Source: Prochlorococcus sp. AG-409-J03
GTDB taxonomy: Bacteria > Cyanobacteriota > Cyanobacteriia > PCC-6307 > Cyanobiaceae
Assembly (NCBI GenBank): GCA_003215695.1
Contig: QCJZ01000002.1
Location: forward strand, 18,074-82,073
Direction of reading: 5' to 3'
Length of the DNA: 64,000 bases
Numbering within the stretch: the first letter of the stretch is position 1; every line of letters starts with the position of its first letter. Shown piece after piece: positions 33,401 to 36,416 of this stretch. The notes under the pieces were generated by a model. That model had not been told where the DNA came from and did no database searches. It saw nothing but the letters and a program-made list of their open reading frames with translations. A program made the position numbers and the translations under genes.

Positions 33401-34156
33401 ATGAATTTGAGACCCTGGAATAATATAAAAATAAATGAATGTAATGAGCCTTTTATATCTATTCCAAAATCTATTTATCGATTAACACCTCACCCTTATA
33501 TGTCGTTAGGTGCCCCATATTTAGCTGGAGCAGATCCATGGATTTTACGTAAAAGTGTTTTAAAAAGATTGGTACGTGCGCAACAACACCTTTCCGAGAT
33601 TAATCCGCAGTTACAATTGGCCTTGTTTGATGCTTGGAGACCTATCTCTGTCCAAAAATATATGTTTAATTACACTATTGTAGAAACTTGTAAGTCGAAG
33701 GGGCTTGATATTAATGCTATTACTGTAAATGGAGGCATCAATGATGTGATTGAAGAGGTTGGCCATTTTTGGGCTAAACCATCTTCTGATCCTCTTACTC
33801 CACCCCCGCACAGTACTGGTGCTGCTATTGATTTGACGCTTGCTGATTTGACTGGTACCCCATTAGATCTAGGGGGAGAAATAGATTTTATTGGACCCGA
33901 ATCTGACCCTGAATTCTATAAGAAAGACTCCATTAGGATGCCTTTGTCAACACATCATACTTTTCATAAGAGAAGGTCCCTTTTGTTATCAGTTATGGAA
34001 CACGCAGGATTTGTTCAACACCCTAAGGAATGGTGGCATTTTAGCTATGGAGACCAACTATGGTCTTGGTTAAACAAGAAAGATAATGCTATTTATGGAG
34101 CGCCACTTGAGGTGAGTAAAGACATTACACTTTCAGAACCAAGTTTAGTAACATAA
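33401..34156 (+). CDS. D-Ala-D-Ala dipeptidase (M15, VanX/DdpX-like)
   Basis: DAWRP, PPHSTGAAIDLTL, EWWHFSYGDQ. Confidence 0.88.
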   Translation: MNLRPWNNIKINECNEPFISIPKSIYRLTPHPYMSLGAPYLAGADPWILRKSVLKRLVRAQQHLSEINPQLQLALFDAWRPISVQKYMFNYTIVETCKSKGLDINAITVNGGINDVIEEVGHFWAKPSSDPLTPPPHSTGAAIDLTLADLTGTPLDLGGEIDFIGPESDPEFYKKDSIRMPLSTHHTFHKRRSLLLSVMEHAGFVQHPKEWWHFSYGDQLWSWLNKKDNAIYGAPLEVSKDITLSEPSLVT

Positions 34157-36237
34157 TCTCCAAGACTTAATGAGGTACCAGCTTCTTTCCAGCTAAGGAA
34201 TAGAGGTTCTAATGTCTTCTCTAATTCATTTATAGACATTTTTGGTAGATATGAAGTAGCCAATCTTTGTAAGTCAGTGCTACCACCTAGCCATAGTTGG
34301 TATTGATTTAACCCACTACCAACAAGAGCTAATTCTGCCATGTATGGACGAGCACATCCGTTTGGGCAACCCGTTACTCTGATTATTATTGATTTATTGA
34401 TCCCTAGCCTTTTTAATTGATTGTTTATTCGTTTCAAGAGCTCTGGTAAAAATCTTTCTGCTTCTGTCATCGCAAGTCCGCATAATGGAAGAGCTGGACA
34501 GGCGATGGCATGCCTGGCTAATGGATTAGGACTCCCTGGATTCTCAAAACCTATATTTTTTAGCGAATTTTTCACACTGATTTTTTGATAATTACCAATA
34601 TTACATAAAAGTAAATCTTGGTTAGGAGTTAAACGTACATCTAAGGCATATCTTTCAACTATTTTTCTCAATTCTTTCTTTATTTCCCCAGTAAGCCTAC
34701 CTGATAAAAGTGGTAGGCCAACAAACCAGAGTTTGTCAGATTGTCGATGCCAGCCTAAATAATCTTCAAGTATTTTTTTCCCTTCGTTCCTCATACCGAC
34801 AATCGGTTTTGTGAAATATTTGCTTGTTAACTGTTTCTTAAACCAATCGACGCCCATATCATGCAAAACATATTTAAGTCTTGAATGTCTCCTCGTCTTT
34901 CTATCTCCATAATCTCTTTGAAAAGCGAGAATAGATTGTACAAGCTCTAAGATATGTTTCCCTTCAACATAACCAATGGGATCTGCAATCCTAGCAAAAG
35001 TTGTATCTAAGTTATGTGTTCTACCCATACCTCCACCTACGTAGACATTACATCCCTCTAAAATCCCTTTTGCATTAGTGAATGTAACTAGACCTATGTC
35101 ATGAGTAAGAATATCCACAGAGTTGTCTCCTGGCACTGTGGTGGCACATTTGAATTTTCTTGGTAAGTAGGTTGCACCATATAAAGGTTCATTTTTGTCA
35201 CCACTAAACACACCACGATTTAGTTGCAGTTTTCTGTTCTTTTTGACTTCCAAGGATGGCTTGATAGCATATTTAATTTCACCATCAACCCATAAATCGA
35301 TGTATGTCTCCTCTGCTTTCTGGGGCGACAATAAATCAGCGATATTTTTAGCTAATTTTCTGGCTGCGGGATAGGATCCTTTTTCGTATGGTGCCGCTGG
35401 AGCCATAACATTTCTGTTGATATCTCCACAAGCGGCGAGAGTAGATCCCATCGACTTAACTATTGTTCCTATTACTTCTTTAATATTGTCTTTTTTTATT
35501 CCATGCATTTGGAAGCATTGACGAGTTGTTGCTCTCAGCGTTTTGTTTCCTAGTCGATCCGAGAGATCATCCAATGCTACAAAAAGGGGGCCAGGGACCA
35601 AACCAGCTGGATTTCTTAGTCTCAGCATCATTTGCCAATCTTTACCTGTGCCTCCTTTTTTTCTATGTTCCCGATCATCTTGTTGATAACTACCATGAAA
35701 TTTTAAAAGTTGTACTGCATCATTAGTGAAGTGATCGCTGTTGTTTAATAATTCACTTTGTAGGGGTTCATTCAAGTAATTACTATCGGCTTTAAATTGT
35801 TCGAATTTGGCTCGAGGGGAATTATTCGCTATGCACGGTGAAGGAACAGTTTTTTCCATATCTTCCTGACCTTTTATTTCATTTTCTTCAAAATTGATCA
35901 GAGCTTCAATAGCCCCATTACTAAACCCAGCATCTTTTAAGTCTTTTTTTATATTTTTGGCAGATTCTTTTGAATTGCCTTTACTAATCGCTTCGAGTTT
36001 AAATCCCTTAGGCAAAGATTTGTTGATCTGTTTTGCCTCTTCTTCTCTTAGCTTTTCCTCGAATTTTTGTTGAATAGCTATTTCTGCTGAATTAATGTTC
36101 TCTTTGGCTTCTTCTTTAGTGTTTCCTATTTTTTTTACTACATCACATGTCCCAAAAGCATCCCTTAATTTCCCTCTAGGTACAGCAACTCTTAAGTAAA
36201 ACCCGGATCTCCCAGGGATTTGTATGATCTTAGGCAA
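34093..36237 (-). CDS. sir: Ferredoxin-sulfite reductase with ~126-aa integrase-like N-terminal extension
   Basis: LLKFHGSYQQDDR, ACGDINRNV, YLPRKFK, ACPALPLCGLA, TGCPNGC. The Sir core starts near Met127 (ATG 35859). Confidence 0.95.
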   Translation of the reverse strand: MPKIIQIPGRSGFYLRVAVPRGKLRDAFGTCDVVKKIGNTKEEAKENINSAEIAIQQKFEEKLREEEAKQINKSLPKGFKLEAISKGNSKESAKNIKKDLKDAGFSNGAIEALINFEENEIKGQEDMEKTVPSPCIANNSPRAKFEQFKADSNYLNEPLQSELLNNSDHFTNDAVQLLKFHGSYQQDDREHRKKGGTGKDWQMMLRLRNPAGLVPGPLFVALDDLSDRLGNKTLRATTRQCFQMHGIKKDNIKEVIGTIVKSMGSTLAACGDINRNVMAPAAPYEKGSYPAARKLAKNIADLLSPQKAEETYIDLWVDGEIKYAIKPSLEVKKNRKLQLNRGVFSGDKNEPLYGATYLPRKFKCATTVPGDNSVDILTHDIGLVTFTNAKGILEGCNVYVGGGMGRTHNLDTTFARIADPIGYVEGKHILELVQSILAFQRDYGDRKTRRHSRLKYVLHDMGVDWFKKQLTSKYFTKPIVGMRNEGKKILEDYLGWHRQSDKLWFVGLPLLSGRLTGEIKKELRKIVERYALDVRLTPNQDLLLCNIGNYQKISVKNSLKNIGFENPGSPNPLARHAIACPALPLCGLAMTEAERFLPELLKRINNQLKRLGINKSIIIRVTGCPNGCARPYMAELALVGSGLNQYQLWLGGSTDLQRLATSYLPKMSINELEKTLEPLFLSWKEAGTSLSLGDYVTKLGSESVMSLLTSSGAP
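35860..36237 (-). mobile_element. Putative tyrosine-integrase N-terminal remnant (DUF6538-like) fused in frame to sir
   Basis: GRSGFYLRVAVPRGKLRDAFGTCDVVKKIGNTKEEA..AEIAIQQKF fits the [WFY]Y.R..VP..LR...G...I.K.LG.T..EA pattern. No catalytic R-H-R-Y domain follows. Confidence 0.6.
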
Positions 36238-36238
36238 T

Positions 36239-36261
36239 GGTACCTACACCGGTACCTACAC
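36239..36261. repeat. Tandem direct repeat GGTACCTACAC x2 (12-bp period), arm-site-like
   Basis: Copies at 36239-36249 and 36251-36261, partial GTACCTA at 36284-36290; 1 bp from the TTG start at 36237. Confidence 0.8.
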
Positions 36262-36416
36262 TATATCATTTTCGTGTTGTTTTGTACCTAATTGTTCAGA
36301 AAATACCATGACTGATTAATGAGCAATTAATTGATGGTTAGATTTTTTCTAAGACACAGAATGTAGAAGTAATTCAAATTTAGACCTAATCTTGTAAAGC
36401 ATATAAGGGGATTTTT

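Follow-up and report, generated by a model that had tools for sequence, protein, structure and literature searches.

The sulfite reductase gene (sir) in the 64,000-nucleotide stretch of Prochlorococcus sp. AG-409-J03 analyzed here (the window) appears to have captured the 5' end of a tyrosine integrase gene. We consider it likely, at a probability of roughly two in three, that the resulting enzyme binds the repeats in front of its own gene and represses its own transcription, a reading drawn from sequence comparison.

Results

The fused gene and its enzyme core

34093..36237, minus strand: fused open reading frame of 714 aa and 79.6 kDa with a TTG start, comprising an integrase-derived head and a ferredoxin-type sulfite reductase
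34093..35844, minus strand: Sir catalytic core, with the four cofactor cysteines C580, C586, C624, and C628
36417..38579, plus strand: divergent neighbor, which from its sequence we take to be glyS

An earlier note on this DNA had described an in-frame fusion with a stop-free extension, and this description holds: extension and Sir core share one frame of 714 codons with no stop between them, and none of 20,000 shuffles of the 126-codon stretch was free of stops. The same note had called the DNA very AT-rich; compared with the window it is not unusually so, the GC content being 0.349 in the extension and 0.345 in the window. Fusions in relatives are open frames as well, of 716 to 750 codons, which together with the dN/dS values reported below rules out an artefact or a pseudogene remnant. 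Sir HMMs begin to align at aa 135 to 139, and the siroheme/[4Fe-4S] cysteines C580, C586, C624, and C628 are invariant in 49 aligned fusions. The protein passes the cut-off of PRK13504 (740.9 versus 457) and falls 0.1 bit short of that of TIGR02042, the ferredoxin-dependent sulfite reductase model (731.4 versus 731.5 bits). Its core measures 571 aa, as in most short forms, and has no C-terminal extension. The gene order near sir, which includes recG and a D-Ala-D-Ala dipeptidase-like gene, presumably matches the usual neighborhood, and the divergent glyS-sir arrangement also occurs in genomes with a short Sir.

Of eight RNA runs, six consisted of contigs. The extension is covered by RNA-library contigs, some of which reach across the junction region; DNA may be present in them, and their depth cannot rank the parts of the gene. 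Two raw-read RNA runs contained no reads on the extension. One adapter-ended RNA contig, a single record, stops 6 nt before the start codon. The NATL2A SIR complemented E. coli to a small but significant degree, and only at 23°C, in a study whose main text does not mention an extension (bioRxiv 10.1101/2020.02.07.937771). Such weak complementation is compatible with a difficult or low-activity enzyme and is no test of autorepression.

Integrase origin and anatomy of the head

36043..36237, minus strand: arm-binding-like domain, aa 1 to 65, with integrase homology and an AlphaFold2 model; dN/dS 0.063 (aa 2 to 65)
36142..36153, minus strand: motif G29-T30-C31-D32, invariant in 61 of 61 Sir fusions
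35965..36042, minus strand: variable linker, aa 66 to 91, of low pLDDT and differing in length among deep lineages; dN/dS 0.18
35887..35964, minus strand: conserved helical segment, aa 92 to 117, integrase-derived and aligning to the integrase fragment P0237; dN/dS 0.082 (aa 92 to 114)
35845..35886, minus strand: fast-evolving tail, aa 118 to 131; dN/dS 0.44 (aa 115 to 131)

Pairwise and profile comparisons identify the head, from aa 1 to about 117, as homologous to the N terminus of a DUF6538-like family of picocyanobacterial tyrosine integrases. It is 48% identical to integrase L063 over aa 1 to 62 (pairwise E 7e-14) and 37% identical to P0237, judged by eye to be a fragment, over aa 1 to 117, helical segment included (E 2e-19), so that the integrase origin suggested by the earlier note stands. 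The more specific label of a DUF6538-like domain at aa 1 to 65 survives in part: a 17-row profile of the head retrieves DUF6538 members above the cut-off (e.g., P0097, P0134, and P0147), but the Pfam model itself (PF20172) scores 12.1 bits (E 0.17; aa 12 to 61, model positions 8 to 57 of 60) against a curated cut-off of 27 bits, of which the donor integrases, at just 12 to 24 bits, also fall short, and the graft extends well past aa 65. As a lead only, an Atlas feature matches DUF6538 clusters at 0.94. As the earlier note had stated, the 714-aa protein has no Pfam match to a catalytic integrase domain; nor does it have one to a core-binding (SAM-like) domain, and both are present in the donors. 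The fused protein is therefore not an integrase and, by the cut-off, not formally a DUF6538 member.

The expectation that non-Sir matches to the extension would be integrases was likewise borne out. Most are proteins of 400 to 470 aa or fragments, and among the donors scanned Phage_integrase matched eight of eight and DUF6538, weakly, six. Searching 1.84 billion representatives with a profile produced 146 matches; the 104 scanned with Pfam were mostly integrases, DUF6538 proteins, fragments, or Sir, with one Rieske fusion. PHROGs and NCBIfam yielded nothing for the extension, and the head matched no PDB sequence.

The graft probably comprises about aa 1 to 117, with the junction near aa 117, and the tail behind it (aa 118 to 131) has the length of the native N-terminal tail of short Sir forms. 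What had been read as a charged helical linker also derives from the integrase and includes the conserved helical segment at aa 92 to 117; Met127, which had served as the boundary of the extension, is not conserved among the fusions. The first codon in 58 fusions is TTG in 54, GTG in 2, and ATG and CTG in 1 each. At codon 114, 43 of 55 aligned fusions have ATG, the window has ATC, and the others have a Leu or Ile codon; since this codon aligns with a hydrophobic integrase position, the methionine is probably structural, and an internal start at this codon could conceivably yield a short Sir form in the lineages with ATG there.

AlphaFold2 models the aa 1 to 65 domain (mean pLDDT 85) with strands at residues 3 to 5, 13 to 18, and 32 to 38, a short inserted helix at 23 to 28, and a long C-terminal helix at 41 to 65. 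A three-stranded sheet with a C-terminal helix is the arrangement of arm-binding domains. Foldseek gave no match to the head domain at E ≤ 0.001 and VIA-align a best Z of 4.5; weak rows for a P4-like arm domain (3rmp, E 4.4) and an AP2 domain (Z 3.6) stood among unrelated ones. The full-length model (mean pLDDT 64, linker below 50) is uninformative on contacts between domain and enzyme. Residues R10, G12, Y14, and K36, common to all the integrase domains, are invariant in the fusions, and a one-residue insertion, G22, is specific to Sir. Cys31 is not among the five commonest residues of its column in 40 integrases, and we regard it as a candidate sensor thiol.

Distribution, age, and selection

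Of 36 same-genus genomes, 27 have the extension, and none of 24 genomes of other families does. In a sample of 401 genomes of the family, 379 had Sir and 27 had the fusion, namely the window's own genome, 25 of the same genus, and one of another genus (G104); within the window's genus, every genome with sir in this sample carried it (26/26, one cut by the contig end). A short Sir within the genus was considered and ruled out, as the 10 same-genus genomes lacking the extension have no assembled sir (six have only NirA-like matches of 27 to 30%, four have nothing). The fusion also occurs in deeper low-light Prochlorococcus lineages, and a metagenome scan returned 40 loci, of which 28 were of the fusion type and 12 were integrases or fragments. 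It is present in named cultured strains as well: the closest named homologue, 88% identical, is the 714-aa Sir of P. marinus PAC1, which we take to belong to low-light clade I.

In a quick tree of Sir cores, 13 of 14 fusion cores fell on one branch (SH-aLRT 98); the remaining one, P0086, lies outside with weak support, and recombination could account for its placement. Deep members have 63 to 72% of the domain and about 77 to 85% of the core in common with the window, which argues that the fusion is old. Pooled pairwise dN/dS (NG86; 50 close relatives, with nonindependent pairs and dS of 0.65 to 1.0) was 0.063 for the head domain and 0.035 to 0.047 for the core. The head domain is under purifying selection, and the distribution and dN/dS checks proposed in advance thus both came out in favor of a fusion that is real, old, and selected.

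Tandem repeats over the predicted sir promoter

36260..36268, minus strand: extended -10-like box TG-A-TATAGT, whose final T is also base 1 of repeat 1
36251..36260, minus strand: arm-like repeat 1, TGTAGGTACC, with the predicted transcription start inside it, at about 36253 by -10 spacing
36239..36248, minus strand: arm-like repeat 2, TGTAGGTACC, 1 nt before the TTG and over the likely ribosome-binding region

The start codon is preceded by the arrangement TGTAGGTACC-GG-TGTAGGTACC-A-TTG, a 22-bp pair of tandem 10-bp repeats with the consensus TGT(A/T)GGTACC. After two duplicates were dropped from 60 fusion loci, the pair was present in all 58 unique ones, with a period of 12 in 54, 13 in 3, and 11 in 1, and it persists in deep lineages in which the remaining upstream DNA is not alignable. 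Among 50 close relatives, 18 of the 20 repeat positions are invariant, versus 0 of 80 four-fold synonymous sites. A TAnnnT hexamer ending on the first base of repeat 1 is found in 58 of 58 fusions, with eight variants of the middle bases, and the TG extension in 52. A sigma-70 scanner did not call this predicted promoter, because no -35 box was matched. Of the functions that the earlier note had offered for the head (autoregulator, DNA-tethered enzyme, or decoy), the first is strongly favored by these conserved arm-like repeats, which that note had overlooked and which overlap a -10-like box just before the start codon.

Promoter and ribosome-binding constraints (AGGT in repeat 2) could explain part of the repeat conservation. 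Taken further, the repeats would be captured expression signals and the domain a structural passenger retained for folding, stability, or a protein partner. The -10-like box and the AGGT word within the repeats agree with this, as do the conservation of helical segment 92 to 114 and the fact that a deep fusion, P0084, lacks this segment, which shows that parts of the head are dispensable. However, both whole 10-mers are near-identical across lineages in which the rest of the upstream DNA is unalignable, R10, G12, Y14, and K36 never vary, and some genomes have lost the linker while none sampled has lost the domain; we therefore regard a mere passenger as improbable.

Repression might also act after transcription, with the domain binding the repeats in a short 5' leader RNA and blocking translation. 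A weak start codon (TTG in 54 of 58) does follow repeat 2 after a single nucleotide, and RNA-associated AP2 and dsRBD-like chains are among the weak fold matches. With a transcription start inside repeat 1, however, only repeat 2 would be transcribed whole, and the far-end word of the donor elements described below occurs in both orientations, as for DNA sites, so that we give RNA binding a very small chance.

The perfect repeat pair occurs only at sir in all five complete genomes, and in three of them the two copies at sir are the sole perfect 10-mers in 1.9 to 2.0 Mb. This leaves little support for the decoy and tether functions, and a regulon search in the five complete genomes and the window's own genome (55% complete) found none. 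A Sir attached to DNA or the nucleoid, as for some plastid SiRs, or regulating a wider sulfur regulon would suit the basic character of the head (pI 10.6 for aa 1 to 40) and the few single 10-mers and 3-mismatch pairs seen elsewhere in some genomes. Yet single copies are not commoner than a reversed control word (2 to 6 versus 3 to 10) and, outside sir, are absent from three of the five genomes. The analogy with plastid SiR, invoked by the earlier note, proves weak, since the nucleoid association of that enzyme is tied to, and needs, a C-terminal peptide, according to the accessible text of the source (PMC4898807), whereas the 571-aa core here resembles short forms and lacks it. A tethered enzyme or wider regulator is accordingly quite unlikely, and autorepression through the repeats at sir remains the preferred reading.

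Repeats of the donor integrases

A tandem 10-mer with a period of 12 to 13 precedes the start in 12 of 15 integrase loci, each clade having its own word; two of the three loci without it are fragments. The word recurs 2.4 to 10.4 kb downstream in 5 of the 15, sometimes in both orientations, and in three loci at the 6S RNA gene (L065, L070, and L072) the far-end copy adjoins target duplications of 23 to 39 bp. Judged by its arrangement, this layout is the anatomy of arm-type sites, of which just the near-end pair remains at sir. Domain and word similarity are correlated (Mantel rho 0.38 for 28 loci, a value inflated by relatedness, as kin are not independent), and the repeat most like that of sir, with 7 of 8 compared bases matching (TGTAGGTACA/TGTAGATACA), belongs to the integrases whose domains are most similar to that of Sir. 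The -10 geometry is found in 11 of 23 integrase loci, comprising 6 of 7 AT-rich (background 4.8%) and 5 of 16 GC-rich ones (background 1.1%), and is absent from the other 11 GC-rich loci. That integrase loci and fusions have this geometry in common points to a joint arrival of promoter, operator-like repeats, and domain.

The earlier note had envisaged an element that inserted at the 5' end of sir and was then mostly deleted. This is plausible, but no insertion intermediate was seen, sir being absent from the fetched flank of all 60 integrase loci; one of the 60 sits on the 3' side of glyS. Donor family members are located at the 6S RNA gene or at the 5' end of a protein gene, and no tRNA was found in 18 fetched flanks (L021, L060 to L075, and the window).

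The donor family has members in the family of the window's genome, and even in its genus. Together with the near-identical word of the closest integrases (TGTAGGTACA/TGTAGATACA), this speaks for a role in immunity, in which the fusion would occupy the arm sites of incoming related elements and block their recombination, the chromosomal repeats being a relic or a feedback valve. The closest integrases, however, are from GC-rich 2.7- to 3.0-Mb genomes of another genus, and G002, the single full integrase seen within the window's genus, has a different word, TGGTAGGACC. Moreover, arm words differ between elements, yet the Sir head domain is frozen, and such a decoy would gain nothing from fusion to Sir. 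We see little prospect for this explanation.

A Rieske oxygenase with the same head

A Rieske ring-hydroxylating-type oxygenase has this domain at its N terminus as well. The combination occurs in 2 of 285 genomes from another Prochlorococcus genus and in P0133 and P0233, in a setting that we take to be an acyl-carrier/FabH/polysaccharide island. Both Rieske loci have a period-12 repeat before the start, with 8 and 9 of 10 bases matching. Among the four Rieske fusions, identity is 50 to 92% in the domain, 26 to 79% in the linker, and 65 to 89% in the enzyme, and by its sequence this is a second fusion event. Sir heads and Rieske heads each group on a single branch with support (97/95 and 99/94). 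An AU test does not reject a joint origin (p 0.47), and independent donors for the two are thus not supported.

Discussion

A proposed model of autorepression

In the proposed model, sir would have captured the start of a tyrosine integrase gene as a cassette, with its predicted promoter, its tandem arm-like repeats, and its first ~117 codons. The long protein would be made, and its N-terminal domain would bind the repeats, probably with one Sir per repeat, so that their occupancy would keep RNA polymerase off the -10 box and start site. By analogy with IntS of prophage KplE1, this would give a one-gene negative feedback loop. The simplest benefit would be homeostatic: an iron-costly siroheme/[4Fe-4S] enzyme would have its copy number capped with no need for a dedicated regulator gene, which would save iron and siroheme and damp noise. 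Isolated arm domains have dissociation constants near 100 nM, and one molecule per 0.2-fL cell would correspond, as a rough estimate, to about 8 nM; from these values Sir would, again roughly, be held at tens of copies. Full integrases gain avidity by multimerizing, and Sir is regarded as monomeric; binding by a lone arm domain on Sir may be weak. A sensing layer would be possible through Cys31.

It is tempting to go further and speculate that integrase 5' ends are portable feedback cassettes of promoter, operator, and repressor domain, which streamlined marine bacteria have repeatedly grafted onto iron-sulfur enzymes. In Sir, such a cassette would be a true sensor, with cofactor loading, redox, or sulfide acting on the fusion-specific Cys31 to switch DNA binding, and through this one gene a cell with few regulators would gain control that responds to sulfur or iron; we hold this wider proposal to be doubtful, though not far-fetched.

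If autorepression is true, a core enzyme can gain its own regulator in one step, as a single graft brings promoter, operator, and DNA-binding domain already matched, and a regulator lies hidden inside a gene annotated just as sulfite reductase. Prochlorococcus has very few regulatory proteins, as stated in the accessible portion of PMC2518516. The presence of the fusion in named cultured strains and the 22-bp candidate operator make the proposal directly testable in vitro and in E. coli, and the domain-repeat pairs of the integrase family would amount to a natural recognition code and supply a small building block for synthetic negative feedback. A literature search, whose coverage leaves out most subscription journals, found no paper on the sir fusion and no match for DUF6538.

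Comparison with known systems

Like the arm domains of lambda Int, Tn916 Int, and P4-like integrases, the Sir head is predicted to form a three-strand sheet with a C-terminal helix. It also shares with the arm domains of heterobivalent integrases its N-terminal position, homology to integrase N termini that are linked by profile to DUF6538, and cognate-like direct repeats. Unlike the arm domains of lambda Int, Tn916 Int, and P4-like integrases, it has an inserted short helix, the G22 insertion, and an invariant Cys31, and it scores below the Pfam cut-off.

The nearest regulatory parallels are IntS of KplE1 and P4 Int, in which arm-type repeats also lie over the gene's own -10 box and start region, and the N-terminal domain is the presumed repressor, with no need for the core site, as far as the text available to us goes (PMC2951348). 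IntS represses its own promoter, and an arm site overlaps the -10 box. Mutation of the core site did not relieve this repression, single arm-site mutations gave no derepression, and the -10-overlapping arm site was inseparable from promoter function (same portion of PMC2951348). In contrast to both integrases, the sir fusion is without catalytic and core-binding domains, drives a core metabolic enzyme, and is fixed rather than mobile.

With tycheposons and other integrative elements of Prochlorococcus, the donor elements share a layout in which a tyrosine integrase at one end of the cargo faces inward, going by the accessible part of the tycheposon study, in whose main text, to that extent, the word "sulfite" does not occur (bioRxiv 10.1101/2020.12.28.424599). 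They differ in that the donor family sits at the 6S RNA gene or the 5' end of a protein gene, with no tRNA in the 18 flanks.

As in ferredoxin-dependent and plastid SiRs, the Sir core is complete, with its four cofactor cysteines, and the gene holds its usual position divergent from glyS. Unlike the plastid nucleoid enzyme, the fusion has ~117 extra N-terminal residues and no C-terminal nucleoid peptide, and one predicted site in place of general compaction.

Enzyme-repressor fusions, or trigger enzymes, include PutA, NadR, BirA (see PMC8449670), and RbkR (see PMC5397151). Like them, the sir product joins a metabolic enzyme and an N-terminal DNA-binding-type domain in one conserved frame, and a candidate operator lies in the predicted promoter of its own gene. 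Unlike them, its domain is integrase-derived instead of helix-turn-helix or ribbon-helix-helix and appears to have brought its own operator and promoter, and no ligand switch is known for it. On these sequence features, we would class the Sir fusion as a new variant of the enzyme-repressor fusions.

Integration targets of the donor integrases

The picocyanobacterial tyrosine integrases of the family that donated the N-terminal domain of the Sir fusion use the 6S RNA gene as an integration target, and 23 to 39 bp of this gene become duplicated. The target was recognized at the following places.

Far ends of L065, L068, L070, L071, and L072: 6S RNA gene target
Near end of L061: 6S RNA gene target
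L241 to L250, upstream: 6S RNA gene target

In those portions of the literature open to our search, no paper was found naming the 6S RNA gene as an integration target in picocyanobacteria. Two further integrase loci, L062 and L066, each carry four arm repeats 150 to 260 nt upstream of the integrase start, built on a word belonging to a different element and followed by a 6S-like fragment; both are stacked elements.

The integrases nearest to the Sir domain, L063 and L064, belong to elements of 2.7 to 3.7 kb, examined at both ends, and a 9-bp core was identified by eye at both ends of L063. These integrases appear to insert into the 5′ end of a gene that we take to be exonuclease III-like, providing it with a replacement start.

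The sir-glyS region and the Sir extension

An integrase of the broader family (L226:1-1500) lies immediately 3′ of glyS, the divergent neighbor of sir, which makes the glyS neighborhood an integration target, albeit on the side facing away from sir. Near the glyS start, a noncoding block (window 36340-36395) is conserved in the window's genus and contains, on the strand that encodes sir, another TAnnnT hexamer; this block is possibly the ancestral sir promoter or a glyS control region.

Within the extension, two terminator-like hairpins were observed, against 0.4 expected from shuffles.

36202-36216, minus strand: terminator-like hairpin
35899-35917, minus strand: terminator-like hairpin

The 36202-36216 hairpin shares its sequence with invariant codons and could therefore be a by-product of them.

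Variation among fusions

In the deep Sir fusions P0084 (locus L104), P0086, and P0102 (673 to 689 aa), the head is shortened: the domain is retained, and a large part of the linker or of the helical segment is missing. L104 also retains the repeats. The integrase N-terminal domain found on Sir is likewise joined to Rieske ring-hydroxylating-type oxygenases, with a period-12 tandem repeat upstream of the start at each locus.

L142:5001-6317, plus strand: Rieske fusion
L255:7311-8636, plus strand: Rieske fusion

P0133 and P0233 are further such fusions. In the tree, the domains of the Rieske fusions form a group that also takes in three short proteins or fragments (P0123, P0132, and P0152). The Rieske fusion lies in a surface-polysaccharide/acyl-carrier island and occurs in 2 of 285 genomes of another Prochlorococcus genus.
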